Positions 3,630 through 23,459 of a stretch of DNA of 64,000 nt are shown one piece after another. This stretch comes from an uncultured Thermoplasmata archaeon. Lineage in GTDB: Archaea; Thermoplasmatota; Thermoplasmata; Lutacidiplasmatales; UBA184. A program made the translations under genes and the position numbers. The stretch is taken from positions 2,860 to 66,859 of the forward strand of contig OY970259.1 in the NCBI GenBank assembly GCA_963715645.1. The letters are read 5' to 3'. The notes beneath the pieces were generated by a model that was given only the letters and a program-made list of their open reading frames with translations, made no database searches and was not told where the DNA came from. Position 1 is the stretch's first letter, and every line of letters begins with the position of its first letter.

Positions 3630-4331
3630 ATGACCGGTGGGACCACGGCGCTCTACGTGCGAGTGAGCTCGGAGGAGCAAGACCTCGTCGGACAGGAACG
3701 AGAGTTGCGCGGCTACGCCGAGGCCAGGAACTGGACGGTCGTCGGCAGCTACGCCGAGAAGGTCACGGGGACCGGGAAGGTCGAGCGCAAGGCGTACGAA
3801 CGTCTCCTGCGGGACGCGGAGGAACGGAGGTTCGATCACTTGGTGGTGTGGGCGCTGGACCGGTTCAGTCGGGAGGAGACGTTCACGAGGGCCACGCAAG
3901 CGATCCTCGACCTGGAGGGACTCGGTATCCGGTTTCACTCGCTCAAGGAACCGATGTTGGACACCCCCGAGGACGGCCAGCCGAACCTCGGAAGAGACGT
4001 TCTGCTCGCCCTGCTTCCGGTCATTGCGAGCTTCGAGTCGAAGCGTCGGTCGGAACGCGTCCGTGTGGCGATGCGGGAGATCAAGGAGGGGCGACGGCGG
4101 ACGCGCAGCGGGCGGCCGCCGGGTCGGCCCGTCCGGGCGACGCCCGAGAAGGTGTCGGCGATCGTTCGCCTGAAGGCCCAGGGGCTGACGTGGAGGGTCA
4201 TCGCCCAGCGAGTCGGGCTGCCGAGGGGGACCTGCGCCAACGTCGCGTCCCGGGTCCGGAGGGGGCGGTTACACAACTCGCTCACTACAAAAGGGTCTGC
4301 CGGGCCTTCGACGGACCCGGCCCCTACGTAA
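3630..4331 (+). CDS. small serine recombinase (resolvase/invertase family)
   Basis: ATG 3630 within ORF 3519-4331. Motifs: ALYVRVSSEEQ (catalytic Ser), VVWALDRFSRE, and a C-terminal HTH GLTWRVIAQRVGLPRGTCANV. Transcribed towards the low-GC island. Confidence 0.9.
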   Translation: MTGGTTALYVRVSSEEQDLVGQERELRGYAEARNWTVVGSYAEKVTGTGKVERKAYERLLRDAEERRFDHLVVWALDRFSREETFTRATQAILDLEGLGIRFHSLKEPMLDTPEDGQPNLGRDVLLALLPVIASFESKRRSERVRVAMREIKEGRRRTRSGRPPGRPVRATPEKVSAIVRLKAQGLTWRVIAQRVGLPRGTCANVASRVRRGRLHNSLTTKGSAGPSTDPAPT

Positions 4332-4379
4332 AGTGCCCGTTTCCGGCGACCCGACGCAGGTAGTCACGGAGAAAAGAAC

Positions 4380-6908: not shown

Positions 6909-7332
6909 ACATCGTACCTCATTACGATCGCTATGGCTCGCAATGGAGGAAAGGGAGTCCGAACGAGCGGACTTCCCGCCCGGTATGACCTCGTGGGTAG
7001 TTTGCCCCGCTAGCGGTGCTGGAAATTCGTTGAGTGACTTCACAGGACTTGGCATCCAACGCCTTCACACAAAGGACCGATTCTCTGGTGAGGGATATGA
7101 GGAGGGGGAGTGGAAAGTAGATCACGCAGATCCGAGGTTGCAAGGTGGCCCCACCGAACTTGAATACCTCGTACAGGCATGCAGAAGATGCAATCGTCAA
7201 GAGAGCGCCTCGGAAGAAAGAGAGTTCCGGGAGGAGTTTGAGACTGATGGCACTGTATCTCGAATGCTCGAGTCCATTGGCCTTTCACCGGAACGATTTA
7301 GCCTGCCTCCAGAGAAGCACCGGAACGGCTAA
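6898..7332 (+). CDS. small HNH endonuclease
   Basis: WKVDHADPRLQGGPTELEYLVQACRRCNRQE (D-H ... N ... CxxCN). ATG 6898 overlaps the upstream stop (TGA 6906-6908). ATG 6943 is an alternative start. Confidence 0.7.
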   Translation: MPSEHRTSLRSLWLAMEERESERADFPPGMTSWVVCPASGAGNSLSDFTGLGIQRLHTKDRFSGEGYEEGEWKVDHADPRLQGGPTELEYLVQACRRCNRQESASEEREFREEFETDGTVSRMLESIGLSPERFSLPPEKHRNG

Positions 7333-7432
7333 TCGGCGCGCCAATTGCTCAGGCGCTTTCCCTCACGATTTCGATAAGTGGCTGAGACAACACGTGTCCA
7401 AGCCTGAGACAACCTGAAATCGCCCCTGGGAG

Positions 7433-8083
7433 TTGCATCCGTCCGTGGTCGATCTGGCTGATTGGCTGATAGTAGGGTCCATCGTCGCTGGGTTTGCCGG
7501 CCTAATCATCACCTACCTCTTCAATGAACGATTGAATCGCCGTGCCTTCCGCCGAGAAAAACTCTACGAATTGAAACTTGAGACTTACCTCGACCTTCTC
7601 GGCTCGCTCAATATCACGCTTTCAGCGACCGGAGCATTGTGCGATCTAGCGGTTCGAGAGATTCTTAAACAACTTAGGAGAAAATCGGAGGAATCTAATT
7701 CCCCGAGCGTCCCGCCCGACCAATTGTTGCAAGCGCTCAGAAAACAACAATGGGAGGCCTTGGGATTCGTCGAACCCGCCACACCGCCGGTTGATTACAG
7801 TAAACCGCTCGTCCCATATTTCGCAGTAACGACTCTGGCCACAAGACAATCCAGCCGAGCCTATTTGCGATTGCTCCTCCTCGACTTTCCCGACCCCTTG
7901 CTACGGCCGATGATGGACTACTTCGAGAAAATGAAGCAAATCGGCGCATCTGGCGGGTTGCCTCTACCACCAATGTCGGACGAACAGGCCGAACGTGCCC
8001 AGCGCGACTTGGATGAGTTGGGATTAGAGTTTCGCAACCTCGCCGAATCGTGTCACAAGGATTTGCTTAAGACGATGGAGTAG
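7433..8083 (+). CDS. hypothetical membrane-anchored protein (one N-terminal TM helix, helical cytoplasmic part)
   Basis: Intact 216-aa ORF with a TTG start. TM helix is LADWLIVGSIVAGFAGLIITYLF. No family recognised. Confidence 0.55.
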   Translation: MHPSVVDLADWLIVGSIVAGFAGLIITYLFNERLNRRAFRREKLYELKLETYLDLLGSLNITLSATGALCDLAVREILKQLRRKSEESNSPSVPPDQLLQALRKQQWEALGFVEPATPPVDYSKPLVPYFAVTTLATRQSSRAYLRLLLLDFPDPLLRPMMDYFEKMKQIGASGGLPLPPMSDEQAERAQRDLDELGLEFRNLAESCHKDLLKTME

Positions 8084-8315
8084 CGGGCGCTCCTTCTGGA
8101 TATAGACATTCATGAAGAGTAAGAACGGGCTCGGCTTCGTGTCCCTGCCAAATTGACAAGAAGGTTTGGGTCTGCAAAGCCCTCAATGCCAAACGGTTGG
8201 GTAGGCTTCCACCGGAGCGGCCCGTCACGGAAGGTGCTGCTTACGAGCCCACGATGAGCTCCAGAGTCTCACGAACACACACGCCCAAGAGTCTCCTTCA
8301 TTGGGTCGCCTTTTC

Positions 8316-10354
8316 TTACGGGGACGGGGGAGCAGCCGGCCTGACGAAACCGGTAAGTTGGGTCCACATTGCCATTATGGATGCAGGGGGCGGGGAGTTC
8401 AAGGCGACCTCGCGCGCGACCGCGGGAGCCCTTAATCCGTTCCTTGACCTGACCTCGCGAAGGGCGGCTTCCAACACTAGCGGGGCGCACTCCTTCTCCA
8501 GAAGCTCCGAGAAATCGTCGTACGGGTAGAGGTGGGCGCTTGAGGCATACTCGGCCACCGCCTCCTTCGCCTTTTGGTCCGCTATGATCCTAAACGGAAT
8601 CCCCCACGCTGTCAGAACGCGCACGAACCCGTCGAAGCTCTGCTGACCACCAGCGTCAATGACCTCCACGCCACTGCGCGCCAAGTCAACGCCGTCGGAG
8701 AGTACTCGAAACCACTCTGGTAGGGCAGCGGCCTCCGATCCACCCTCGACAAGTAGGACCTTTTCGCTGAAGAGGGCGCGCGTCAACTGAGGAGTCCGCT
8801 CCAGGTCGCGGATCACTCGCCGAGAGTCACTTTCGATGAGTGTCCCTAAGCGAAAGACTTGGGTCTCTCCAGTAGCCGACGAGAAGCGCAGGAGGCTGAG
8901 CGCCTCCCGTGGAATCACAAAGGCGTCCGAGTGACTGACTATGAAGACTTGATTCCCCAAGGTAGTAGCGGCCTCGGAAATCAAGCTCAGAAGGTCGCGC
9001 TGTTTGACCGGGTGAAGATTTAGCGCGGGCTCGTCCAAGAGAATTACCGATTGTGTTCGGCCGAGGACGAGAAGGAAGGGAAGAAGGAGTTCAAGCAAAC
9101 CGGCAGCGACGGCCTCCGAGGAGAATTCGATCCACTCGTTACTCCAGCGCAGAGAAGCGACTTGGACCGGGTCGGGCATCGGCGATGATCGCGTGACGAC
9201 CTTGCCGTCCAAGACGAAAAGAGGTAAAGGCCCGCTCTCGGGCTGAGCAGGCCAGGACTCCACGACCACGTCGATGCCGTGCCCGGTGAATCTTCGGTAG
9301 ACCTCAACGAGTTCCTCAAAACGGGCACGCTCGGCCGGGATGACGCTGTTCTTCGAGCCGGTACGAGTACGTTCGGAACCGTGCTGCCGTCCACCGGACT
9401 CGCGGCGATTGGGATTGAGTAGATGGGCGGGATCTTCGTGCGCTCGGGCGTCGAGCGCGCGTCAGAGAGTCGAACCGTGGAGGACTGGAAAACCAACCCG
9501 GCAAGGTCCCGGAGCCCGAATCCCTCGGAGAGTGTATCCTGCGTCAGCAAGGAATGTCCTCAGGCGCAGAACGTCCAGGCCGAGCCGCCCGTCCGGTTTT
9601 CGTAGTTCTCTATCTCAAAGCCGAACGTGCTCAGGATGACGGGGTAGGGGCCCTTCGGCTGCATCTTAGTGAGGAACCAATCGAGGTTGAGCGATGAGGC
9701 GAACTCGTCGGAGTCCTTCTCATCGACGGGTTTCTGCTTGTCGCCAAGGGCGATGATGCCGGGTTGCCGGGCCTCCAACTCCTGAACGACCTCTTCCCCG
9801 AGGTTCACCAATCCCCATCCCATCGCGCGGGCAGAGGTGGTAGACAGTCCATTGGACGTCAGGAACAGAGGCGTCGGAAGCCCGAGCATCTCGACAAAGT
9901 AGTCGAGCGGATCCGACTGGTCCTCCCGCCCTCGCACACAGAACTGAAGCTTCCGAGAGAACAACTCGACAAAGGTTGGTCGTGCGCGGTTGAGAAGCTC
10001 GCGCGCAATCCGCTGGGCAACGTTAGTGTCCACATCGTTCTTGCCTCCGAACCTGAGATCTCCTTTAATCGAGGCAAGCAGGAGGTCGGCCAGAACCTCG
10101 ATCTCATCTCGGGCGAGAGAGATGTCTACTCTCACTGACGGAATCCGGGCCGTGTCGTAACGGTGGACGAACGGCTGAGCCGTCTTGATGCGTCCGGTGA
10201 ATACGTCCCCTACGAACTCAATGGCTCTAAGGAAATTCGTCTTGCCTGCTCCGTTCGGTCCGACGATGACCGTGCGCTGCGGGATTCCTTCGAGCAGAAT
10301 ACCAGGGTCCCCGAAGGTCAGGAAGTTTCGGGCCTCTACCCGCTCAATCTTCAT
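8316..10354 (-). pseudogene. OLD/PARIS-like ABC-type ATPase-TOPRIM nuclease, with an in-frame TGA and one frameshift as assembled
   Basis: ORF 9560-10354 has Walker A VIVGPNGAGKTNFLRAIEF. ORF 8316-9269 (open upstream to ~9365) has VILLDEPALNLHP, IVSHS, then TOPRIM-like KVLLVEGGSEAAALPEWF ... VIDAGGQQ. TGA 9560-9562 is in frame with the following GHSLLTQDTLSEGFGL (ORF 9044-9550). A frame change near 9355-9365 joins the rest. Confidence 0.75.
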
Positions 10355-10762
10355 TCCACGACCCTTCAGATGGGCCGAGGGAACTACTCGTCTAAGAAGG
10401 TTCGTTGAGCTGGCGCTCTGAAATGGTTCAGCGCAGAGGACGATCTTGAAAACGACTCGGACATGGACCCCCTCCCTCCGGACTTACCGCAATCGCCCAC
10501 TGGGACCTGTGGGGGGGCGTGACCGAATCGCTCAGTCCTCGGCCGCCCACCTATGCGAACGGGGCTCGGACCTAGTCCGGCTGAGAACCAGACCGAGCAC
10601 GGCGGCAGCGGCTCGGTCTCGAGTCGACCAACGCACTCTAGTAGAACGAGGCTCTTTGGTACGTTCATGACTATCAGACATAGGAGGGGTGGACAGCCCC
10701 TCGCTCGTCGAGCTCGCGTGCGCCGGGCGGAGGGACACGGTCCGTGTCGCACAGCACTCTAA

Positions 10763-12172
10763 GCCAGCCCGCTGATAGCCTCGCCTCTCCTAATCAGTGG
10801 AAAACCACGGACCTTACCCCGGTCAAGAAATCCGCGAGGGGTAGCCACCACCGGCACGGGAACTTATCTGCGGGGGGACGGAAGAGACCGGTGTCAAATC
10901 ACCACCCCTTCAAGCGTCGTTCGATTCATTTGGGAACAAGTCGCCAGTCGGAGGCGCAGAATCGGTTCCGTCATCGATCTCGGAGCAGGCAACGGCCGGT
11001 TCGCCACACAGGGGAGGTACCGCAGCTATCTGGGGCTCGAGATCGACCCGGATCAGGCATCTCGGCCAGCACTTCCGGCGAACGCTCGGGTGGTCAGAAA
11101 GTGCGTTCTGGAGTCCAGCGGGAAGTTTGACCTCGCCATTGGGAATCCGCCCTTCATTCGGAACCAAGACCTCGCAAAGACATGGACTGCGGCCGCTCGG
11201 AGCCTCATCCTACGTTCTCTCGGGCAGGACATCGGCCGGCTGAGCAATCTTTACCTCTACTTCCTCTGGCTCGCAATGCTGAGGACCAAGAGCGATGGCG
11301 TAATCGCGATGGTGCTCCCGTTCGAATGGACATTCAGGCCGACATCGCGCCGTCTGCGATCGTACATTCACCAGAAGGGGTGGGAGGTCACGGTCTATCG
11401 TTTCACGCAGCCCGACCGGTACTTCCCGCGAATCGCGGCGGTTCCCTCAGTTACGATCATCGACAAGGCCACGACCCAAGGCGGGATCAGTGTCTTCGAC
11501 GTTGGCCCTCGATTAGGAATCTTCCGGGCCCTCCCCCCAAACTCAACCATTGAGGGCATGTTCGAATACGAACGACATGCGGGGCGAGTCTTCGCTCGTC
11601 GCGGACTAAGCCCCGGATCCCAGCATGTCTTCACATTGACGGAGCGCGAACGCAGCGAAGCTGGCATCGCCCGTTCAAGCGTCCATCCTTGCGTGACCAG
11701 TCTGCGGGCCCTCCCGTATTCCGTCCGACAGTTGACCGGCGATCGGTTTAGGTCGTACTACGTGAACGCGGGAAAGAAGTGCTGGCTACTCCGGACAGAC
11801 GCCATGCCTCTCCCTCCTCCTGTCGCCGGATGGTTGAGAAGCGCGCCCGGCTGGGTGAAACGGAATTCGACCTGCCGGGATCGATACCCCTGGTATCGAT
11901 ACAAGGTTCCCACCCCAGCGGCGATCCTATACTCCTCGGCGTTCAAGGGCACTGTCCGCCCAAAGATGATGGTCAATGCTGTTCGCGCGGTGAATCTCGG
12001 CTCAGTTCATGGGGTCCACGGTCTAAAAAGCGCCGGCGAACTTCCGGTCCTGTACGAGCGCTTGCGCAGGCTGAACTACGCGCGAGGCACCCTCCCCGGT
12101 CCGGGTGGTCTAAGGAAGCTGGAAGTTCGCCAGATGAACGGCATTCTCAAACGGTTCTATATGCCTGGGTAG
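10763..12172 (+). CDS. gamma-class N6-adenine-type DNA methyltransferase (Eco57I/TaqI-like); no canonical in-frame start before motif I
   Basis: The frame is open from 10763. Motifs: TTPSSVVRFIWEQV, motif I VIDLGAGNGRF (10970-11002) and motif IV NPPF (11144-11155). The first ATG/GTG/TTG in frame is GTG 11090 (track ORF 11090-12172), which lies downstream of motif I. A GTG at 10744 in another frame suggests a 5' frameshift. Confidence 0.8.
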   Translation, partial: ASPLIASPLLISGKPRTLPRSRNPRGVATTGTGTYLRGDGRDRCQITTPSSVVRFIWEQVASRRRRIGSVIDLGAGNGRFATQGRYRSYLGLEIDPDQASRPALPANARVVRKCVLESSGKFDLAIGNPPFIRNQDLAKTWTAAARSLILRSLGQDIGRLSNLYLYFLWLAMLRTKSDGVIAMVLPFEWTFRPTSRRLRSYIHQKGWEVTVYRFTQPDRYFPRIAAVPSVTIIDKATTQGGISVFDVGPRLGIFRALPPNSTIEGMFEYERHAGRVFARRGLSPGSQHVFTLTERERSEAGIARSSVHPCVTSLRALPYSVRQLTGDRFRSYYVNAGKKCWLLRTDAMPLPPPVAGWLRSAPGWVKRNSTCRDRYPWYRYKVPTPAAILYSSAFKGTVRPKMMVNAVRAVNLGSVHGVHGLKSAGELPVLYERLRRLNYARGTLPGPGGLRKLEVRQMNGILKRFYMPG

Positions 12173-12190
12173 CACCAGGCCAGAGAGTCC

Positions 12191-14430
12191 ATGGTCGCTG
12201 AAACTGTCCCGCTAGACACGGGTATCGCCCGGTTCTCCAGCGATTCACAGCTGCTCTCGGAGCTAGGAGAGCGTCTCATCGCTGACCCGGTGATTGCTCT
12301 CGCAGAGCTCATCAAGAACGCGTACGACGCGGATGCAACTGAAGCGAACGTGTACTTGGAGAGCGGGCCTGATCCAGTCCTGATCGTACGCGACAATGGT
12401 CATGGCATGTCCAAGGACGATTTCCTGAACTACTGGATGATAGTGGGAACTCCCGCGAAGCTCGGCGCGGAGAAGTCACGACGGTTTCATCGGCCCCTTA
12501 CTGGCTCGAAGGGTGTCGGACGTTTCGCGGTACGCCTGCTTGGCAAGTCGCTCCACCTAGAGTCGGTCTCCTTTGACGCCTCCGTCAAGGAATGGCGGAG
12601 GCTCGTCGCGGACTTTGAATGGGGCAAGTTCGCATCGGGAAGCGACCTGGGAACGGTTTCTGTGCCCTACAAAATCTACCGCGAGGCGAACAAAGCGGAA
12701 GCAGGAACCCGACTCTCCATCGGGACTCTGCGGGACAAGTGGTCAGATTCGGACCTCGCTCTTGTCACCCAGGATGTGCTCGACATTGTAGAACCGCCGT
12801 TTCCCCTGACAAGTGGCCCGGCCAAGACCAGCCAAGGGGCCGCGGATCCCGGATTCTCCCTCTTTTTCTCGCCCCCGGGCCAAGGCGAACGCGCCACTCA
12901 GGCCGCCGACGAACTCGTTGAGAGATGGCAGGCGCGGATGCTGATCACCGTGGCGGGCACCGCTGCGCAGTACCAATGCTTCTACAAGGACCAGAAGGGT
13001 AAGCCCAAACAGTGGACCGTTTCACTCGACAAGAACCTCGTCGGTGACGTGACTGCCGAACTCCGGTACTTTCCGAGGCGGGCCGGCATGTTTAGCAACA
13101 TGACCAACATGGACGGTCGAGACGTCATTAGCTATCTTCGAAAACGCGGTGGCGTTCGCATCATCAATCGCGGCTTCCGGATTCGACCATACGGGGAGCC
13201 CGATGACGACTGGCTCGGACTCTCACGTTCCAAGGCTAGGAACGAGCGAAGATGGAACTCCCCCTACACGGAAGTACTCTATCCGAGGGCCAAGTTGCCC
13301 CGGGAGGAGTCGCTCGACCCGCTCCTGAAGCTGCCTGCGAATCACCAACTCTTGGGGACCGTGTGTGTCGAGAGTTTCCAATCTGACCAATCGAAGGGGG
13401 TCAACTCCGATTCGGATCGCCTCCAGCCGGCTATGGACCGTCAGGGGTTCGTGGACAATGCGGGGTTCAACCAGCTCTCTCGCCTCATACGGACCGCAAC
13501 GGAACTAATCGCGGTCGTCGACCGAGAGCAGGGAGTCAAACGCGACAAGGATCGGGAGGCCCGCGTTACCCGTGAGGTTCAGGTCAAGATCGACACCGCG
13601 ATTGAACGAGTTCAGAAGAGCCGAGAGATTGCACCGAAGGAGAAGCGCGCCATAGTCGAGTCCTACCGGGAGATTCAATCCGCGGTCGCGGTCTCTGCCC
13701 AGGCGCACGGTCAAACACTCCGCGCTGTCGAGGCGATGTCCCTCCTCGGCGTTCTTGCTGGATTCATGACCCACGAAACGACGGTCATGCAGAGGGCATC
13801 CGAAGAAATGATCAAAGCCCTTCGGGCCATTCCGGCCCGGAATCGACCCGTCGGCTATGATACATTGCTGTCGCGCGTTGAAGAAGCCAACCGCGAGTTC
13901 AAGAGTCACATCGAGTACGCCCGCTTGTTCCTTACGAACATTCACGAGCGCGAGGTCCGTCCGTACCCGGTTCGGCCTCAGGTAAAGCGGGTATAGATCA
14001 TTTCAAATCGTTCATGGACGCCCGTTCCATTCGAGGCGAGAATACCGTCTCTACTGACGAGCGTTCCCCCGCGATCGGGGTCGGGGTCTACTCGGGAATA
14101 TTGCTAAACCTCTTCACGAATGCCCTAAAAGCCGTCGTGAAGGTGGACAATCGAGAGAGGCTGATTCAGGTCTCGGCGGAATCTACGCCTCAGGGGCACA
14201 AACTTCGGGTGTCCGACACTGGTGTTGGGATTCCCCTTGAGCTGCAGGGCCTAATCTTTGAGCCGTTCATCACAACGACCGGGGACGAAGGACCTCTCGG
14301 GAGCGGGATGGGGCTTGGACTCCACATTGTCCGTCGGGTCCTCGATTCCATAGGTGGGCGAATAGAATTGGTGGATCCACCCGATGGATTCGTGACGTGT
14401 TTCGAGGTGACCTTCCAAAATGCCAAGTGA
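12191..14430 (+). CDS. MORC/HATPase_c_3-like GHKL ATPase fused to a histidine kinase core (HisKA + HATPase_c); split into ORFs 12191-13996 and 14014-14430
   Basis: N-terminal motifs: ALAELIKNAYDADA, VRDNGHGMS, GSKGVGRFA. A long helical linker follows. H-box LLGVLAGFMTHETTVMQ (His codon 13772-13774). N box LLNLFTNALKA, G1 VSDTGVGIP, G2 GSGMGLGLHIV. The two ORFs are separated only by TAG 13994-13996 plus a frame change. The second frame is open from at least 13921, so a 1-nt indel would fuse them (~745 aa). Confidence 0.8.
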
Positions 14431-15307
14431 GGGGGTTGACGCGCGGGTCCTCATCATAGAGGACACTGAGGAGACATACCAGAGACTCAGCACGCTTCTT
14501 TCCGCCAAGAGCGCTGCCCTTCGGTTCTCAACCGAGCGGCTGTCGATTGAACCAGGGAATGGTTCGGACCTTCCGGCTACAGAGGAGGTTGTGCGGAGCC
14601 GTCTACTTGACCCTAACCCGACTTCGTTGGTGCTCCTAGACCTCGACCTGAGCAAATTTCCCAAGCACGTTGCCCGAGAGTTCGTGCAGGGGGTCTGCTC
14701 CGATCGGAGGATCCCGATTTGTGTTTACAACTACCGACCTGACGTCCTTCAACGGCTCAAGGATCTGCGTCAGTGGCAAGAAGAGGCAATCTCAATCACG
14801 GATTGCGGCACGATTGAGGAACTGGCCGAGAGATTCCTTGACTGCATCGGTGGATTCATGGCACTTCGGGCCTCGCTCTCTCAGTCAGGGAGGGGAGACT
14901 TCCGACAGACAATTCGTCAGATTCTGCAATGCCCGAAGGACGCTAGGATACAGCTGGACCAGTACTTCTGGGGTCGATTCGAGCCCCTCCAGGTCGCGGA
15001 GCTTTCCCCGGAGGAACGCGTCCGAGTCTTCACAACTTCCTTGGGATACTGGGTCTACAACGTATTGCTCCGATTCCCAGGTGTCTTGCTCGGTGTAAAG
15101 CCGGCAGCTTCATACCTGGACATTGACGTGGATGCGTTCTGCACCAAACCGGAGATACAGAAACTCTTTGATGCTGCGCGCTATAAAGGGCCATTTTCCG
15201 GCGTGCGACCTTATTGGTGGGCCAGCTCGCTCGACCAGATACTCGCTGAAGGGATGGTAGAGAGTGACACATCCATGGTTTCCGGGGAACACCCACGCAG
15301 AACGTAG
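14420..15307 (+). CDS. receiver (REC)-like domain protein with an unassigned C-terminal domain
   Basis: RVLIIEDTEE (acidic pocket) and LVLLDLDLS (phospho-acceptor-type Asp, codons 14638-14646). About 170 aa of C-terminal sequence have no recognisable family. ATG 14420 overlaps the kinase stop (14428-14430) by 11 nt. Confidence 0.65.
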   Translation: MPSEGVDARVLIIEDTEETYQRLSTLLSAKSAALRFSTERLSIEPGNGSDLPATEEVVRSRLLDPNPTSLVLLDLDLSKFPKHVAREFVQGVCSDRRIPICVYNYRPDVLQRLKDLRQWQEEAISITDCGTIEELAERFLDCIGGFMALRASLSQSGRGDFRQTIRQILQCPKDARIQLDQYFWGRFEPLQVAELSPEERVRVFTTSLGYWVYNVLLRFPGVLLGVKPAASYLDIDVDAFCTKPEIQKLFDAARYKGPFSGVRPYWWASSLDQILAEGMVESDTSMVSGEHPRRT

Positions 15308-15496
15308 GGGATTTTCAGTTCCCCGGTGTCGGTGTCTTAGGGGGCATGACGGCGCGGGGTACTTCTTCATAATCCGGGAGGAGCCAGTCTGCGCCGAGCA
15401 CTCTGTCAGACCTAGCGGTTGGCTGCCCGTGGGAGCGGATCAATCTCGATCGAACAGGAAAAGATAGACGAGCTGAACCCGTGGCTCGCCCTGTAA

Positions 15497-16001
15497 TTGC
15501 GATTGGAGATGTCCGAGTATCACGCGCGGGCCGGCCCCTACTTGAACCCGATTCGTCGGGCGTACGAAGACTTTTGGCGGACGCTTACGGGCTTGACAGG
15601 AGGGAAGGCCGAGCCGATAATTCGCGAAAACCTCGATGTGAGAGTCCAACGCGATTCCGCAGGGGAAGAGTGCGTTTATGTCGTCTCTCGTCCGGCCTTC
15701 AGGCTCCGAGGTCTCTCGGCGCGTCGTAGAGATGTGCACCGATCCGACTATGACGTGTACATCGCAGTTGAACAATCAGTCCGCGCTCGCGAGGCACCGG
15801 TGGATGGACGGACATTCGATGCCGTCCGTCTGCGTGCGGGTAAGCTACATGGACTGTGAGGAAAGCCCCAACGAGCCCCACGGAGCCACCGGTTCCGATC
15901 CTGGGCGGGTCCACATCGGAATCCACTTCGATCTGAGCGACGAGGAGTCCGGCCCCTCGATTTCTACGATCATCCGATCTTTCACGCCCAATACGACCTG
16001 A
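15497..16001 (+). CDS. hypothetical protein, probably one frame change (ORFs 15497-15859 and 15678-16001)
   Basis: The likely start is ATG 15509 (MSEYHARAGPYLNPIRRAYEDFW). The second ORF continues with VSYMDCEESPNEPHGATGSDPGRVHIGIHFDL. No family recognised. Confidence 0.3.
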
Positions 16002-16871
16002 GGTGCATCGACCCGGCTTCGGTCGGTAGAACGTGCGTCCCGTCGCAGGACTCGGCCCGATGTGACTCCCCCAGAATCCCGACTGCGCCCATGGACTTCT
16101 CAGGAGTCGTGTTCGCGATTTTGCGGGATCACCTGCCGGACACGGTGGCGTCCGGATGGCCTCAAGACATGCGGGAGGCATTGATTGCACTACCTCACCT
16201 CCCGACTGGCCGCTTCGCCCCATTCGTCAACGGAACAAGCGGATTGTCGGCGCTTGGCGGGACCGGTCTGACGGCAAGAGACCCCCAACGTGACCCTCCC
16301 AAACGAGTCACTTAGGATTCGGGGCAATCCGCAATCCCGTTCGACCAGTCCAGGAGGTATCGAGACTCAGACCGAACTTCGACAAATCAATCCGGTGGCC
16401 CGAAGAGTATGAGAGATCCGGTGGGAAGCACAACTCCGCATTCCCGCCGGTGGATTAGTTTCCACGATTCCGACTGGACCCCAGCCGGTCTGTCAGGCGT
16501 GGAACGGTCCTCCGCCGCCGATCTCGGTCATCATTCGTCGAGGGATGAGGGCCCGCCGCCGCGAGCGCTGTCACGACGCGATTGGAAACCGGTTGAGAGC
16601 TGCAGGTTCGGAGAGCGAGCTCGGATCTTCGGTCGTGACCAAGATCAGGGGTTCAGTCTCACCCGGACTCGAAGTGTCGAAGAGCCATTGGGCCGGGGGA
16701 TCAATGGAGTGACGTTCACGGCGAACCAACCCACGTGGCCCCGGTTCAGGCGTGCCCTGCGGCGGGGTGCGGGGTCCATGTCTGATGGATCGCCGGGCAG
16801 GTGGCCGGATGGTGGTCTCCCTCTCGGAGTTATAGACGAACGTATCGTGGCGCTCCTCCTTCAGCGCTGAT

Positions 16872-17320
16872 GTGAACTATTTCGCATACGGGTCGAACAT
16901 GGACCTCTCGCGGCTCCGGGAAAGAGGAGTCCACCCTCGAGAGAGAAGGGCCGCGGTGCTCCGGGGTTATCGTCTCAGGCTTCGACAAGCGATCCGCTGC
17001 TAACCCCGGCGAAGGAAAGGCCAACATCATGGCGCGGACCGATGAGTCGGTGGAGGGCATCCTCTCGACGGTCACGGAAGAGGAGATGGGGAAGCTGGAC
17101 CGATGCGAAGGCGTCCCAGCCCACTATCTCAGGGCTCGCGTAGTGGCGAAGCTGAAGGATGGTACGGAGGTCGACGCGGTCACGTATCGTGGCGAATCCA
17201 TCGATGGTCTTCGATGGTTTGAAACCGACCAGGGAATATCTTTCGTATCTGCTCGCTGGGAGAGGCTTCCTTTCGAGAGATTACCTTCGGTGGCTGGAAG
17301 GAACCGAGACCTTCGACTGA
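16872..17320 (+). CDS. gamma-glutamylcyclotransferase-like (GGCT/AIG2 fold) protein, two frame changes
   Basis: GTG 16872 gives VNYFAYGSNMDLSRLRERGV..VLRGYRL. After a shift near 16975 it reads FDKRSAANPGEGKANIMARTDESVEGILSTVTEEEMGKLDRCEG..YLRARV (ORF 17029-17352). After a shift near 17210 it reads KPTREYLSYLLAGRGFLSRDYLRWLEGTETFD and stops at 17318-17320. Confidence 0.6.
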
Positions 17321-17495
17321 ACCGAAGCTTGGAGCCTCCACGCAAGCAGTAGCCGTTCCCGCCGGCGCCTCACCCCTGACCGCTGGTGCGGGTAGGGGGC
17401 CCTATCCCAACACAACGGCCGGGCTTGCTTCGGGGGTCGACTGCACATTCGTTGAATCGGCGGTTCTATAGAGCAGGGCGCCGTCGGATGACCGG

Positions 17496-17735
17496 ATGGC
17501 GAGCCTGAAGGATGAGGTTTCGGACGCCCTAAAGAAGCAGGGTTCACCCGCCGGGGCCCTTCCGTTGTGGGAGGAGATTCACGCGGGCTACGAGCGTGGC
17601 GGCTCAGACGCAGTCTGGAACCTCCTCGAGGGCAAGGTGAAGGCGATTCGGAGGTCCGCCAAGGCGGAGGCTTCGGAGATGAAGGCCGCGGCGGGATCGG
17701 TCAAAGCAAGGGCCCGTGCGAAGAGGAAGCGGTGA
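17496..17735 (+). CDS. small helical Lys/Glu-rich protein (79 aa)
   Basis: Intact ORF. Its TGA (17733-17735) overlaps the GTG 17732 start of the downstream ATPase (GTGA). Confidence 0.5.
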   Translation: MASLKDEVSDALKKQGSPAGALPLWEEIHAGYERGGSDAVWNLLEGKVKAIRRSAKAEASEMKAAAGSVKARARAKRKR

Positions 17736-19988
17736 AGGGCGAGGATGGAAAGGTCCACCTGAAAGCCCTTGACGTCGAGGGATTCAGGGGAGCCAACAAG
17801 AAGGTTCACCTCGACTTCAGCCCCCGAGCGACGGTGCTCTCAGCGTGGAATGGGAGGGGAAAGAGCACCCTGCTGGGCGCCGTAGAGTGGGGTCTCTTTG
17901 GAGAGCTTAAATTCCAACCCCCGGAAAACCGGACCCGTGACGAGCTTGTCAGCCTCTTCCATCCTGGAGGCCGCGCATCCGTCCAGTTGACCCTGTCCAG
18001 GGACAGCGAGGACATCCGGGTGAGTAGAACCCGGGTGGTCGGCAAAATGGGTTCCAGTCTTGAGGTTCGAGATGGTTCCGGCAAGACTCTCGAGGACGAC
18101 GAAGCGGCAGAGTTCATCTTCCGGCTCGACGGGGCTCGGGTTCGACGATTTCTATCGGGCCGCATTCCTCCATCAAGATAGTATCCGCGGACTCTTGACC
18201 GAGGAGCAAAAGGACCGAGACGAGGCCTTGGATCGGCTCCTCGGAGTCGAAACGATTCGGAATCTCTTGACATCGATTCCTCTAAGGCCCGTCTCCACCG
18301 CCCTTGACGAGATAGAGAACCAAGAAGGGAGGTTGATGGAACGGCTCGCCGGCGCCGGGGGTGTTGCCGAAGGGACTCGATCGCGTGCCCGCGAGGAGGC
18401 CCTCGGGGCAGGGTATGACGAAGAAGAGCTCACCATCAAGAAAGGGTTCGACGAATCTCAGGCCCTTCTCGCGGACTTGCGCCGTGTCTGCATGAAGTAT
18501 GACGCCGAGGCGCCTGGTGAGGCTACGGTTGAGAATCTGGAGGACCTCGAACGCGTAGCGCGGCGGATCAAGTCCGCAACCCGGGCGATTCGGTTGACGG
18601 TCGGAAAGGAATCCCCCCTGGACGTCGCAGTGGGCCGTCTCGGGATGTTGAAGAAGTGGAGAGTAGAGATTGAGACGGCCCAAATCGATCTTCAGGCTTC
18701 ACAAACTGCGGTGGAGGAGCACGGCAAGGAACACGGCAAGCCTGAGCAGTGGGCCGGGACGCGGTCCTCACTTCTCGAGGCGATCGAGCGAAGCGAGGGG
18801 GCGCTCCACGTCCTCGACATTCACGGAAAGGTGGTGGCCGACGCTATAGCCTACTTGGAGGCAGTTCCGTCCTCCCGCGAGTGTCCCGTCTGCGGCGACC
18901 CGAAGGAGGCCGCCAAGCTCGCTTCGCTTCTTCGGACGAAGATATCCAAGGGCCAGGCCACCGAGGTTCGACGCCTTCGCGAGGAGGTGGCGGAGGCCAA
19001 GCTAAAGATTCGAGGGCCTAGGCAGAGCTCGAGACACGACGGGGTCGGCTCGTGGCCGAATCCGAACGATGCGCCACGTCGCTCAAGGAGACGCTCGACA
19101 CGACGTGGAAGGACCTTGGCAGGAAGGGGGAAACCGGGGATCCAGTCACCACGATCAAGAAGGAGGAGGGGGCCCTCAATGGTAAGCTCCAAGGACTGCG
19201 AAACCTGAACCTCGAACGAGAAGGAGATCTCCAGAAGCTTGATGATGGCGCCGACCGCCTTCGAGCGTTGCAGCGCTTCGTCAAGGCGGACTCTGATTTC
19301 CAGCGAGTGCGCGAGAAGGCGGAGGGGGGAGATGATGGGGGAGCCAAGGCTTTCGACGAGGACAAGAGGCAGTTGGTTGCTCTGAGGACGGAACTTGAAT
19401 CAATAATCCAAGCGCTCAACGGCCTGTCCACCGGAAGGGCACAGGAGGCACTCGCGCGCTGCGGCGAGGACATTTCGCGGCTGTACGGATTCGCTCTGCA
19501 ATCACCCTTACTTCGACGGGCTGAAGATCGAAGTGAGCCAGAAGGCCGTGCAAGGAGTTCAGAGAAACACCTACCGGATCGTCGCCTATTCTTCGAAGGA
19601 CGGTCAGCGGACCGCGGCGAGCTCCCGACTCTCGACGGCACAGATGAATTGCGTGGCCCTAAGCGCGTATCTTTCTCTGGCTAAGGTCCTGACTCACAAT
19701 CTCGGGTTCATCTTGCTGGACGATCCAAGTCAGAACCTCGACGCTGAACACAAGAGCGCATTGGCTGGTGTCATCAAGGGGCTCTTCCCTTCGCTCCAAG
19801 TAGTCGTGGGAACCCATGACGCCGAGTTCGATGGATTCTTGCGTTCGAGTTTGGGCCGGGAAGAGGTTTCGTGGTACGACCTCAAATGGAACCCCGCGAC
19901 GGGACCTCGGTCATACCCAACAATGCCAATCATGGATGATGCTTCCCCCAGACTCGCTAAGGGTCCTGACAATGGTCCAGCAGCTTGA
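17732..19988 (+). CDS. Rad50/SbcC/SMC-like ATPase with coiled coil and central CxxC (zinc-hook-like); three frame changes
   Basis: The fragments alternate between two frames. 17732-18181 has Walker A WNGRGKSTLLGAVEWGLFG. 18060-19208 (meaningful ~18125-19020) has FDDFYRAAFLHQDS, coiled coil and ECPVCGD at 18879-18899. 19052-19684 is coiled coil. 19533-19988 has signature-like LSTAQMNCVALSAYLSLA, Walker B FILLDDPSQNLD and VVGTHD. Confidence 0.75.
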
Positions 19989-20437
19989 GGGGTCGTTCGG
20001 CGCTCAGCAATTCGGCCAAATCATGCAGACCCTCCTCGCAATTTCATTCCGAAGCGCCGGATTTGAGGTCGTCAAGAACGCAGTCGGGGTCCCTGACCTC
20101 CAGGCCTTCCATCCAGGCGAATCTGACGGGTACGCGATCGAGGCGAAGACCGGTAAGATGTCCGTCAGCCTGTCGAAGAGGGACCTCGATGGAGTCAGGT
20201 CGACCGGACGCATCCCGGTTGTCGCTGCCTTCTTCGTTTCCGATCCGAAGCCGCGTTGGTGGCTTGTCGACGCAAATGCAATGCGCGCGGCCACGTTACC
20301 GAAGGCACGAGATCGAGTCCAAACCCAGAGTAGACGTGGGCTTTGATCTTACCGACCAGTTTTCCCGAATTCTCGCTAGCAATATCCAGATCGCGATGGA
20401 GGGGCCGGGACCCCTGTCACGTTTACTCGGAGGCTAA
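19972..20437 (+). CDS. small PD-(D/E)xK nuclease-fold protein, one frame change near 20300-20312
   Basis: GVPDLQAFHPGESDGYAIEAKTGK = PD-x15-ExK. ATG 19972 (or 19936) overlaps the 3' end of the ATPase gene. The C-terminus continues in the frame of ORF 19985-20437 (EIESKPRVDVGFDLTDQFSRILASNIQ). Confidence 0.55.
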
Positions 20438-20706
20438 TCCGCAGGATTTCAGCTACGACCCCCGAGGCCTCTGCGGAGATTGCGCTGGTTGCGGAGTGGA
20501 ACGAACCCGCCGGACTTTGATCCGGCGGTCGATGCCGGGCCCGATCCCTGACTGTCTCGGGTGGCTTCGACTTTGGGTGGGGCCGTGACGAAAACCAGCC
20601 GTTAGGTCACACCCCCACGGCTTCAGGCGAGTCAGACCCGTAGGATCGAGACGGGGGACTTGGGTCACAGACCGGGGCGGGACGCATGGCTAGGGCGGGA
20701 GCTACG

Positions 20707-21252
20707 TCACGTCCGTACCGAGGGTGCCGACGAACTGATCGATGAAGTCGCTGTCCGCCCGAAGGCCTCTAACCCGGATGCGCGCTCCTCCCACTGGCGA
20801 AGGGTGGATTGCCAAGGGAAGGACGCCCCCCCTGAGCTCTCGAGTGTTTCCTTGGGGAGGGCGGCGGAACGAAGAACCTTCGAACTCGTCGTCCGGTCAA
20901 GATAGGAGTAGGACTGAGGAGGTCGGCGCAGACGGGTCGCCTTGACCAGGGGTACATGCCGGGGGAACTTGACAGCCTCCGAGACTTTGTAGACGGTGGC
21001 GGCTCTGCATCCACGCAGGTACTCGAGAAACTCCTGCTGTGAGATACAAAGCCGGCGACTAAACTGTCGCCATGCCAAGGTTGGGCTCGCGCGGCAGACC
21101 TCGTCCACGAGCATTACGCCGGTGATGGCAGAGGCGGGGGCGGTCTCGTAAATGAATGCCATCCGAACCCGCGAAGAGGGGGAGGCTCTTCGAAGCTCGG
21201 CGGTCTTCTCGCCTGCGTAGATCCTCGCAGCGTATCTGGGATGGATTGCCAT
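20707..21252 (-). CDS. ASCH (PUA-like) domain protein
   Basis: MAIHPRYAARIYAGEKTAELRR ... AFIYETAPASAITGVMLV. ATG 21252 lies 20 nt downstream of the stop of the PIN-GNAT gene. The 3' end of the ORF (beyond ~aa 135) is less convincing. Confidence 0.6.
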   Translation of the reverse strand: MAIHPRYAARIYAGEKTAELRRASPSSRVRMAFIYETAPASAITGVMLVDEVCRASPTLAWRQFSRRLCISQQEFLEYLRGCRAATVYKVSEAVKFPRHVPLVKATRLRRPPQSYSYLDRTTSSKVLRSAALPKETLESSGGASFPWQSTLRQWEERASGLEAFGRTATSSISSSAPSVRT

Positions 21253-21272
21253 GACGATGGCTCGCTCTCCCG

Positions 21273-22730
21273 CTACTTCCCGCATAACGCTCTGTAGTCC
21301 TCCTCCTTGAGTTCACGGATGCTGATGGGCGGAGTTAGGCCGACTGCAGCCAAATCCCCGCGGTAGTTGTTCGGAAGCCCGCCGGCTGCCCAGAATAGAA
21401 GTGCCAAGACGGGTCGGTGGCACATTTCGATCAGCCGGTCCAAGGGCATGACCGTGCGGTTTCCGACGAAGTCGATGACCTCGGTAGGCGTCTTGCAGAC
21501 TCGCGTTTCCTCGACGAGTCCAACTCGGGTCACCCTGCGCTCGTCCTCGGACCGATAGAAGAGAAGGATGTCGCCGGCTCTGACCTTGCCCGTCGCGGAG
21601 TTCGAGAGGTAGGCCTTGCGGATAGCGTTCCCCGCCGCGAATGTGAGAGGGACGGATCCGTCGAGCGTCTGCTGGTATCCCGGGGTCGGGTCAAATTCCG
21701 GGAAGAGCTGACGGTGATAAGGCGGTTTGATTGGGACGAGGAACTTCCGAACTGAGTTGTCCTCACGATATCGGGGGTAGTACTGACGAAAGAAGTTCAG
21801 GGGAGAGAGATCCTCACTGTCGTTGATCGGCGCGATGCGTTTGTGAAGCACTCGCTCCGAGTTGGGCTTTGGACCGATGTCCTTGAAACCGAACGGGCTC
21901 AGGAAATCGATAACCTCAGGGTGGTGCGGAAACACCGTCACGTAACACTCCTCGAAATCGTTCCTCCGACAGTAGGATAGAGCAAAGGAGAGAAGGAGCT
22001 CCCCCACGCCTTGGCGCGACAGTTGATCCGAGACTTTGAAGGTGGCGATCTTTAGCCGTCGATTTGCCGGGAGATGCAGGAGTGGCTCTTCGCTCTCCTC
22101 CTTGTAGAGCAGGATGCCAGCAAGCCCACCTTCCGGGAGGCGAACCCGGACGCATCGCCGCCCCTCTTGGCACGCCTTCTGAAACCAAGCCTCGAATCCC
22201 GGGTAGTCCGCCTTCAGCGAGCTGAAGATGGGGTCGTCTGATATCGAGGTCGTGTACCGGAACATCCCTGAGGTGCGCGGGGAGAGGTGGGGGTGCCCTC
22301 CCGAAATAGGCCTGAAAGTACCCGTAGGGCCGCATCGGTAGACAGAACCCTCTTCTCTTAGCCCGACGCGGTTTGACCGGTGGATGAGACCCTGATCTTC
22401 TGTGATGAGGAACGAAACCGCGTTCCGGAAGACCGCGTATGCCAATCGCGCGTCCACTTGGTCGTGAGCCGACGTGCTCCCGAATTGCTGGAGGAACTCG
22501 GATGTCGGAGCCGGAGGGGTGTCCAGAACCGGATACGAACGGACCTTGGATAGAATGACACTTCTGCGCTGGGGATCCCCGTCTCCGTCGAGTTCTGTCA
22601 ACGAGGCCGGGTGAATCAGAGCGGTGACTGCGTTCTCGTTGAGCAATTGGAGAAGGCGGCCCAGCGTTGGGGAGAGCACGTTGGGATCCTCCCTCCCGAT
22701 GAGCAAATTCGTGTCGAGCAGAATCCGCAT
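21273..22730 (-). CDS. PIN-like nuclease / GNAT acetyltransferase / ASCH-like three-domain fusion protein
   Basis: Intact 485-aa ORF. PIN-like: MRILLDTNLLIGRED and FLITEDQGLI. GNAT motif A: QLSRQGVGELLLSFAL. C-terminal PUA/ASCH-like: VRKFLVPIKPPYHRQLF and KVRAGDILLFYRS. Confidence 0.7.
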   Translation of the reverse strand: MRILLDTNLLIGREDPNVLSPTLGRLLQLLNENAVTALIHPASLTELDGDGDPQRRSVILSKVRSYPVLDTPPAPTSEFLQQFGSTSAHDQVDARLAYAVFRNAVSFLITEDQGLIHRSNRVGLREEGSVYRCGPTGTFRPISGGHPHLSPRTSGMFRYTTSISDDPIFSSLKADYPGFEAWFQKACQEGRRCVRVRLPEGGLAGILLYKEESEEPLLHLPANRRLKIATFKVSDQLSRQGVGELLLSFALSYCRRNDFEECYVTVFPHHPEVIDFLSPFGFKDIGPKPNSERVLHKRIAPINDSEDLSPLNFFRQYYPRYREDNSVRKFLVPIKPPYHRQLFPEFDPTPGYQQTLDGSVPLTFAAGNAIRKAYLSNSATGKVRAGDILLFYRSEDERRVTRVGLVEETRVCKTPTEVIDFVGNRTVMPLDRLIEMCHRPVLALLFWAAGGLPNNYRGDLAAVGLTPPISIRELKEEDYRALCGK

Positions 22731-22865: not shown

Positions 22866-23459
22866 TTAAGGGGTGGGACTCGGACTCCGGCGAAGAACCG
22901 ACCGCACTGCCCCCAGCTTGAGGTTCATGCGCTGGGAGATCTGCCGGAGGCTCTCGCCGTGCGCTCGGCGGGCGACCTCCCTCGCAACCGACTCGGGAAT
23001 CCTCCGGGGCGCCCCGAACTTCTTGCCCAGAGCGCGGGCCCGCGCGATGCCCGCTTGCGTTCGTTCGAGGATGAGCTCGCGCTCGAACTCCGCCAGGGCC
23101 GCCAGCATGTTCCGCTGCAAACGACCGCTCGGGGTCGAGGTGTCGATTCCCTGGTCGATGACGATCACGCGGGCTCCCGCCGCCTCCGCGTCGTCCCAGA
23201 ACCGTAGGATCATGCCCAACGAGCGGCCGAGCCGGTCCATCTTCGAGACTACGATCGTATCGAACTCGCCCGAGGCGAGCCGCTCCCGAAGTCGATCGAG
23301 CTCCGGTCGGTTGTCCCGGACGCCCGAGATGCCGTCGTCCCGAAAGACCGCGACCTCCGTCCACCCTCTCGCCTGGCAGTAGGCCGTGAGCTGACCGACT
23401 TGGGCCTCCGTCGACTGCTCCTTCGTGGAGACGCGAGCGTAGAGGGCGACCCGAGTCAT
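22866..23459 (-). CDS. small serine recombinase (resolvase/invertase family)
   Basis: Intact 197 aa. Motifs: ALYARVSTKEQ, VVSKMDRLGRS, and a C-terminal HTH ESLRQISQRMNLKLGAVRSVL. ATG 23459 overlaps the upstream stop (ATGA). Confidence 0.92.
   Translation of the reverse strand: MTRVALYARVSTKEQSTEAQVGQLTAYCQARGWTEVAVFRDDGISGVRDNRPELDRLRERLASGEFDTIVVSKMDRLGRSLGMILRFWDDAEAAGARVIVIDQGIDTSTPSGRLQRNMLAALAEFERELILERTQAGIARARALGKKFGAPRRIPESVAREVARRAHGESLRQISQRMNLKLGAVRSVLRRSPSPTP

Follow-up and report, generated by a model that had tools for sequence, protein, structure and literature searches.

A Thermoplasmata copy of the PDC-M11 gene pair (PIN-GNAT-EVE and ASCH) and its possible role in defence

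What does a gene pair do if one gene encodes a fusion of PIN, GNAT, and PUA-like domains and the other encodes a small ASCH protein? Such a pair, which we call genes A and B, lies in a 64,000-nucleotide stretch of contig OY970259.1 from an uncultured Thermoplasmata archaeon (the window; coordinates are those of the window). The pair is located at the edge of a defence island that is low in G+C. An earlier interpretation of this DNA (the sequence-only reading) had proposed that A and B might form a toxin-antitoxin or defence pair, and it had taken the fusion not to be a named system. The fusion does have a name. In a search of both proteins against PADLOC-DB v2, A matched PDC-M11A (PDLC04421; E = 6.5e-111), with residues 1-477 aligned to positions 1-475 of the 486 in the profile. 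B matched PDC-M11B over its full length (PDLC04425; E = 9.8e-29). The pair is almost certainly an archaeal (Thermoplasmata) copy of this catalogued module, PDC-M11, which is a (PIN)-GNAT-EVE + ASCH operon and is also annotated as GevTA. A role in conflict or defence is likely. With moderate confidence, we lean towards a fuller proposal: this member of PDC-M11 would be a toxin-antidote-like defence module, with A as the effector and B as its neutraliser.

The pair is already known, as it has been described by comparative genomics and is catalogued in PADLOC-DB. Bell, Wolf and Koonin (2020; PMC7641849) described GNAT-EVE fusions that often have an N-terminal PIN domain and almost always have an ASCH gene in the operon. 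They reported that an AAA_17 ATPase gene is often in the operon as well, and that the PIN form is frequently found with type I restriction-modification (R-M) systems. They also described an ASCH-HsdS fusion in Methanohalophilus and a fusion of ASCH with an HTH (helix-turn-helix) domain. They predicted a role as a toxin-antitoxin or defence system, stated that none of the modules had been characterised experimentally, and credited the first description to Iyer et al. (2013, NAR 41:7635). Payne et al. (2024; bioRxiv 10.1101/2024.01.29.577857) arrived at 145 PDC candidates by way of genes that lie within BREX, DISARM, and type I R-M systems. In the literature on PDC-M11, GNAT-EVE, GevT/GevA, and PhiR47, we found nothing beyond inventories and the 2020 paper of Bell et al., and no paper behind the GevT and GevA names. 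(PHROGs has families for both A and B, with function listed as unknown.)

The window's pair resembles the other members of PDC-M11 in that both proteins match the family hidden Markov models at full length, and the two genes have the same co-directional layout. It differs in that it is not within a type I R-M, BREX, or DISARM operon. Instead, it adjoins a serine recombinase gene and two methylase genes that look like orphans, in the island of an archaeal genome. Nothing essential differs. The pair also shares the fusion architecture, the ASCH partner, and the association with R-M or defence genes with the operons of Bell et al., which are known from computation only. No AAA_17 ATPase gene, such as is known from some operons, adjoins the window's pair. 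As a finding, this locus has little weight, as it is an ordinary copy of a pair that was already described and catalogued. The family is nevertheless worth experiments: it is widespread, and it combines three domains that act on nucleic acids with a conserved, enzyme-like partner.

Domains and conserved residues of the two proteins

We collected 141 homologues of A and aligned 114 sequences, with numbering from an intact close relative (P0001, a metagenome protein). The structure of P0001, rather than of the window's copy, was modelled with AlphaFold using this alignment. (The mean predicted local distance difference test, or pLDDT, was 89.8, and the predicted template modelling score, or pTM, was 0.75.) We also tallied the Pfam domains in 42 members of the family.

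The central domain of A is a GNAT domain. Pfam's Acetyltransf_1 matches residues 185-282 of A itself (E = 1.3e-4), which is barely over the gathering score. A profile of the A family finds Naa50 in the PDB (E = 3e-8), and a Foldseek search of the P0001 model against the PDB finds the GNAT enzymes NatD, Naa50, and PaiA. The motif RQGVGELLL, which had been noticed in the large open reading frame (ORF), is indeed found in A, as part of SRQGVGELLL. Across the 114 sequences, Gly242 and Glu243 of motif A are at least 90% conserved, and Gly280 and Phe281 of motif B are invariant.

At the N terminus, PIN_3 has a sub-threshold match to residues 2-113 of the window's A (E = 0.013), and it was found in 7 of the 42 relatives, with E = 1e-5 at best. 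Three acidic residues of this domain (Asp6, Glu14, and Asp90) are at least 90% conserved in the alignment, and Asp93 and Asp112 are invariant. In the P0001 model, beta and alpha elements alternate over residues 2-142. The top Foldseek matches, which are dominated by GNAT proteins, include no structural match for the PIN domain. Judging from the alignment, the conserved residues of the PIN and GNAT domains seem to fit active domains.

The C-terminal domain of A had been called PUA/ASCH-like, which is close enough: its best PUA-like match from Foldseek is ZmASCH, the ASCH protein of Zymomonas mobilis, with a template modelling (TM) score of 0.76. It is best called EVE, which is a PUA-like domain, because Pfam's EVE is found in 14 of the 42 relatives and ASCH in none of them. 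(GNAT is found in 22.) A profile of the B family gives a weak, collinear alignment to this domain (E = 1.5e-3), with a P-Q-S motif common to both. In this profile-profile comparison, the K-E-R region of B (described below) has no counterpart in A. Overall, the Pfam tally, the model, and Foldseek bear out the order PIN, GNAT, EVE, and together with the PDB profile search they uphold the three-domain architecture that was first read from the sequence.

The smaller protein had been described as a stand-alone ASCH protein, and this is correct. Pfam's ASCH matches B (E = 3e-4), and the model of B (pLDDT of 85.8) matches ZmASCH (E = 8e-14, root-mean-square deviation of 2.0 Å, TM scores of 0.80-0.86, 24% identity). 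ZmASCH (PDB:5GUQ, 5GUS, and 5Y6B) is the closest solved homologue of B. It is also found by sequence, as positions 3-134 of the B profile align to its residues 9-142 with E = 8e-29. We aligned 71 sequences from the B family, mostly from loci in other species, and numbered them on a relative, P0121. The invariant residues are Lys27, Glu30, and Arg32, which lie in a G-x-K-x-x-E-x-R motif that ZmASCH shares; Tyr46, Trp72, and Tyr89; and Pro123 and Ser125, which lie in a P-P-Q-S motif.

What is known about ZmASCH? It binds nucleic acids and is a weak, Mg-dependent RNase on single-stranded RNA (ssRNA), and it did not cut DNA (Kim et al. 2017; PMC5615036). Tyr47, Lys53, and Ser128 contribute to the RNase activity, which was observed with 300 nM enzyme and 3 nM RNA. 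Tyr47 and Ser128 correspond to the invariant Tyr46 and Ser125 of the B family, and the equivalent of Lys53 is a serine in the window's B. The two proteins differ in that ZmASCH is part of an HTH protein (it was deposited as an HTH domain protein), while the window's B has a C-terminal tail of about 50 amino acids with a helix. ZmASCH looks like a member of the same partner family as B, because it was deposited as an HTH protein and because on a Rhizobium plasmid an ASCH-containing gene that is annotated as HTH precedes a GNAT gene. (The GNAT gene encodes 511 amino acids, and genes for an AAA ATPase and an HNH protein come after it.)

The tail of B (20707-20880, minus strand) is an extension in the Thermoplasmata clade with a conserved helix, QSTLReWEeRaS. 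It is missing from the partners of most other lineages, which have 130-160 amino acids, and it was modelled at low to moderate confidence. It may be a clade-specific interaction element.

ASCH proteins also include deacetylases of N4-acetylcytidine (ac4C), with the catalytic triads Lys21/Thr24/Arg26 in YqfB from E. coli and Lys21/Glu24/Arg26 in human EOLA1 (bioRxiv 10.64898/2026.08.01.741249). Lys27, Glu30, and Arg32 of B match the K-x-x-[T/E]-x-R triad of these amidohydrolases with identical spacing and in the glutamate form, as in EOLA1, and the ASCH fold is shared. However, YqfB and EOLA1 act mainly in the salvage of free nucleosides, and they are not paired with a GNAT effector. They are distant structural matches of the B model (E = 1e-2 for YqfB and E = 7.5e-4 for EOLA1), and both are absent from the matches when the B profile is searched against the PDB. 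The structural matches of the B model also include the human TRIP4 ASCH domain bound to double-stranded DNA (dsDNA).

Linkage, overlap, and spread of the pair

If A and B are partners, as proposed, then they might be linked in other genomes, and they are. We scanned one genome per species with a pattern and then fetched 80 loci from other species. In 76 of these loci, A is followed directly by a homologue of B on the same strand, and the other 4 are at contig ends. In other words, B is directly 3' of A in all 76 loci that can be assessed. No third gene is constantly found beside the pair among the loci that we compared; the neighbours vary.

The genes also overlap. It had been thought that B begins 20 nucleotides past the end of A, but that start is Met12 (21252), and close relatives have a leucine there. 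They begin 11 codons upstream of Met12, with MRE[VL]xGxRAIVL. So, the real start of B is probably the ATG at 21285, which overlaps A's stop codon (21273-21275) and gives an overlap of 13 nucleotides with the end of A. Such an overlap is normal for the family: of 73 loci in other genomes, 71 have a predicted B start that falls inside the end of A, and the commonest overlap is 23 nucleotides.

Relatives of A are present in 392 species genomes, mostly from archaea. They are found in Methanosarcinales, Methanoperedens, Micrarchaeota, Thermoplasmata, and Asgard lineages, and also in several bacterial phyla. The spread is patchy: only 3 of 61 genomes that are related to the host have a full-length copy of A. 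Among the immediate neighbours in other genomes, R-M and defence families are frequent: HsdM (8), HsdS (8), Eco57I (7), Schlafen/AlbA_2 (7), YhcG (6), HsdR (4), GmrSD, and MmeI.

Copies of the module are also found on phages and plasmids, including in prophage slots. In the lambdoid Escherichia phage PhiR47_2 (PV340567.1), genes labelled as GevT toxin and GevA antitoxin lie between cI and kil. GevT (357 amino acids) lacks the PIN domain, and its GNAT-EVE region is homologous to A (27.7% identity over residues 160-438). GevT is followed by a small, overlapping partner gene that carries the label GevA antitoxin. The module also rides on an archaeal virus, because the Methanothermobacter prophage psiM100 (NC_002628.3, 8233-10078) carries ORFD and ORF5. 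ORFD is a PIN-GNAT-EVE homologue of 492 amino acids that is 35% identical to A over 85% of the query, and it is followed by the overlapping ORF5 of 129 amino acids. ORFD lies partly within what was described as "inserted fragment IFa."

In nine loci from Methanosarcinaceae, the B ORF is long (565-715 amino acids). We scanned four of these with Pfam; three are B-HsdS fusions and one is a B-GNAT fusion. Thus, the ASCH-HsdS fusion of Bell et al. was found again, independently. The B-GNAT fusion, from a Methanolobus metagenome-assembled genome (L061:7505-9199), is an unusual variant: a second GNAT domain (Acetyltransf_1, E = 3e-8) takes the place of HsdS as the part that is joined to ASCH.

The function of the pair

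We infer that the pair is a toxin-antidote-like anti-virus module because of its membership in PDC-M11, its domain architecture, the coupling of the two genes, the conserved catalytic-type residues, and the mobile, defence-linked spread. The two-gene toxin-antitoxin or defence reading that was made from the sequence alone agrees with the predictions of Bell et al. and with the listing in PADLOC. It also fits with the strict linkage, the patchy spread among the host's relatives, the defence and R-M neighbours, and the copies on phages and plasmids.

How might such a module work? A would be the effector. Its EVE domain would dock on a nucleic acid via a flipped, probably modified, base; its GNAT domain would use acyl-CoA to acylate an amine of the docked nucleic acid or of a charged tRNA; and its PIN domain would cut RNA. 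B, which would be translationally coupled to A, would keep A harmless until infection. B could strip the acyl mark enzymatically, via the conserved K-E-R pocket, or alternatively it could occupy the same nucleic-acid site as A.

Toxins of the TacT/AtaT type are small, single-domain GNAT proteins with an upstream ribbon-helix-helix (RHH) or DUF1778 antitoxin. As in TacT/TacA and AtaT/AtaR, a GNAT enzyme is the presumed toxin here. However, A is a three-domain protein of 485 amino acids with a downstream ASCH partner, and its closest GNAT structures are N-terminal acetyltransferases rather than TacT or AtaT. We rejected membership in the TacT/AtaT type because of this architecture. Also, there is no RHH or DUF1778 match at the window's pair.

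It is doubtful that A and B are the writer and the eraser of an acetyl mark. In favour of this chemistry, B keeps the invariant K-x-x-E-x-R triad, as in YqfB and EOLA1. But it is weakened because B is close to ZmASCH, because the HsdS and HTH fusions suggest an association with DNA, and because the motif is generic. Several points weigh against the proposed module. ZmASCH, the closest solved homologue of B, was reported to be a binder and a weak ssRNA RNase, not a deacylase, and YqfB is a distant structural match. K-x-x-E-x-R is reportedly a generic signature of ASCH domains, so it is not specific to deacylation. In Methanosarcinaceae, a fusion joins B to HsdS, and the ASCH partner on alpha-proteobacterial plasmids is annotated as HTH; such fusions speak for a role in reading DNA or in regulation, and not for erasing. 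In the literature on the module (under the names that we listed above), we found no experiment on any member except for the work on ZmASCH in vitro. Finally, insertions within the window's A (see below) could be real, and this copy could be dead.

A more specific version takes DarT/DarG as a working analogy. The DarT toxin writes a modification on nucleic acid, and the DarG antitoxin erases it. In an acyl-based counterpart, the EVE-guided GNAT would write an N-acetyl mark (for example, one like ac4C) on viral or host RNA or single-stranded DNA upon infection, the PIN domain would cut marked or unmarked RNA, and the ASCH protein would be a dedicated amidohydrolase whose invariant K-E-R pocket removes the mark as long as the cell is uninfected. 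By this analogy we would have the first immune system based on reversible acetylation of nucleic acids, if it is true, but we consider it rather unlikely. More broadly, an acetyl writer and eraser would, if shown, be a new chemistry for prokaryotic immunity.

We then considered other explanations for the pair. First, it could be an accessory to R-M systems. B might read modified DNA bases on R-M complexes, or it might be a DNA-binding regulator, and A might acetylate a DNA base or act on it in some other way, so that the pair tunes the discrimination between self and non-self rather than acting as toxin and antidote. This would account for the fusion of B to HsdS (in at least three Pfam-tested loci of Methanosarcinaceae, with five more that have a B ORF of similar length) and for the Rhizobium plasmid, where the ASCH partner that precedes the GNAT gene is annotated as HTH. 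It would also fit with HsdM, HsdS, and HsdR being the commonest neighbours, with the two N6/N4 DNA methylase genes that are just upstream in the window, and with the dsDNA-bound TRIP4 ASCH domain among the structural matches. And Bell et al. inferred that the ASCH protein of the operon binds modified DNA, citing Iyer et al. (2013) for acetylation of DNA bases (PMC7641849). However, PIN is an RNase-type module, which Bell et al. took as pointing to RNA, and ZmASCH cut ssRNA but not DNA (PMC5615036). The pair is often found without adjoining R-M genes, as in the slot in the lambdoid phage. We also found no report of an N-acetylated DNA base in these hosts. We think that an R-M accessory is unlikely, and we still favour a toxin-antidote-like module.

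Second, the window's copy could be a decaying pseudogene. The sequence-only reading had described an intact ORF of 485 amino acids. The frame is indeed open for 485 codons, but it is not intact, as residues 125-164 are read out of frame. Outside of those residues, the protein is the same as P0001. (The window's reading gives 485 amino acids; intact relatives have 484.) Compared with a near-identical contig from a metagenome (L001), the window has three insertions of 1 nucleotide within A: an A at 22359, a G at 22323, and an A at 22239. Together they add 3 nucleotides over a span of 121 nucleotides, which restores the frame after the third. What they scramble is a linker that is conserved in all homologues, and in the P0001 model these residues are well modelled, with a helix (131-142) and a strand (154-157).

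Are these insertions real? They are most likely assembly errors, because the genome's completeness score is only 54%, because, of 15 long ORFs taken from congeneric genomes, 7 can be placed on it only with a frame switch at contiguous coordinates, and because indels relative to L001 are strongly skewed to insertions on the window's side (81 versus 15). The genome was assembled as a single contig of 2.18 Mb, and its frame switches are genome-wide, with ordinary chromosomal genes included. Near-identical, intact versions of A are present in independent metagenome assemblies. Therefore, A is probably intact in the organism itself. If instead the insertions are real mutations, then the locus would lack a working effector. 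Three insertions within 121 nucleotides do scramble a structured and conserved segment, the adjoining methylase region also has many indels relative to L001, and defence islands turn over fast. But frame switches throughout the genome, a completeness score of 54% for a single contig of 2.18 Mb, an excess of insertions that looks like a read-error profile, and the few substitutions that otherwise separate A and B from L001 all make a pseudogene improbable. (We also considered a frameshift at the 3' end of B and rejected it, as the window is identical to L001 there, and the extra base is downstream of the stop codon.) For users of this genome, indels of 1 nucleotide abound, and neither the open frames nor the frame breaks in the window should be read as biology.

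Third, the roles could be reversed, with B as a nuclease effector (an ssRNA RNase like ZmASCH) and A as its sensor or regulator. ZmASCH is a true sequence homologue of B, and Tyr47 and Ser128 matter for the Mg-dependent decay of ssRNA by ZmASCH; their equivalents are invariant in the B family. But the reported activity is weak, given the excess of enzyme over RNA; A holds two enzyme domains that act as toxins elsewhere; and one GenBank depositor labels the small ASCH gene as the antitoxin (a label with no paper that we could find behind it). We consider reversed roles to be quite improbable, and A remains our candidate for the effector. Last, GNAT, PUA-like, and ASCH domains are all known from enzymes of RNA modification or salvage, but a housekeeping pair, such as an acetyltransferase for tRNA or rRNA and a deacetylase for recycling, can nearly be dismissed given how few related genomes have a full-length copy, the location in a low-GC island between recombinase genes, the copies on phages and plasmids, and the defence genes as neighbours.

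Coordinates and surroundings

The positions of the genes, the domains, and a nearby repeat are given in Table 1.

Table 1. Features of the A-B locus, with positions in the window and the basis for each
Feature	Position	Strand	Basis or remark
Gene A, PIN-GNAT-EVE fusion (PDC-M11A)	21273..22730	minus	ORF of 485 amino acids
Gene B, ASCH protein (PDC-M11B)	20707..21285	minus	192 amino acids from the first ATG, at 21285
PIN-like nuclease domain of A, residues 1-124	22359..22730	minus	Pfam PIN_3, conserved acidic residues, and model
Out-of-frame segment of A, residues ~125-164	22239..22359	minus	Protein alignment with P0001-P0007 and DNA alignment with L001
GNAT domain of A, residues ~165-300; motif A RQGVGE, motif B FGF	21831..22238	minus	Pfam, PDB profile, and Foldseek
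PUA-like (EVE) domain of A, residues ~320-485	21276..21773	minus	Pfam tally of the family and Foldseek
Perfect inverted repeat of 13 bp, CCTATTCAGGCAT / ATGCCTGAATAGG, with a 59-nucleotide loop	22756..22840		Sequence; in the gap from the recombinase stop codon to the ATG of A

The right arm of the inverted repeat stops 25 nucleotides short of A's ATG, and the repeat is also present in L001. Could it be an operator for the family? Among the loci with a locatable start of A and at least 160 nucleotides upstream, only one other has an inverted repeat of at least 10 nucleotides upstream of A. We rejected a family operator, as the repeat is specific to this locus. Possible roles for it are a site for the recombinase or a local operator.

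The window's similarity to L001 is uneven. From 20598 to about 22905, a range that covers both genes, the inverted repeat, and ~40 nucleotides at the end of the recombinase gene, they are about 99.7% identical. Beyond about 22905 (compared up to 26233 of the window), the identity falls to about 92%, with many indels, across the recombinase and methylase genes. This mosaic suggests that related strains recently exchanged the A-B cassette or the island's edge.

The serine recombinase gene (22866-23459) and the two N6/N4 methylase genes are just upstream of A. Probe sequences for archaeal 16S match this genome, and a bacterial probe does not. The block from 4000 to 22000 has a G+C content of about 59-60%, versus about 70% for the genome. 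Other ORFs in this block have NOV_C, HNH, OLD-like ATPase/TOPRIM, Eco57I-type methylase, and GHKL ATPase domains. One of them, an OLD-family nuclease at 8316-10354 (minus strand) with an ABC-type ATPase N terminus and a TOPRIM domain, seems to be split into at least two ORFs (9560-10354 and 8316-9269). An indel artefact is again the probable cause of the split in this Gabija/OLD-like defence gene. At 6003-7332 (plus strand), an ORF for an HNH endonuclease follows a NOV_C (DUF3883-like) protein or is fused to it, which makes this another candidate restriction-like gene of the island.

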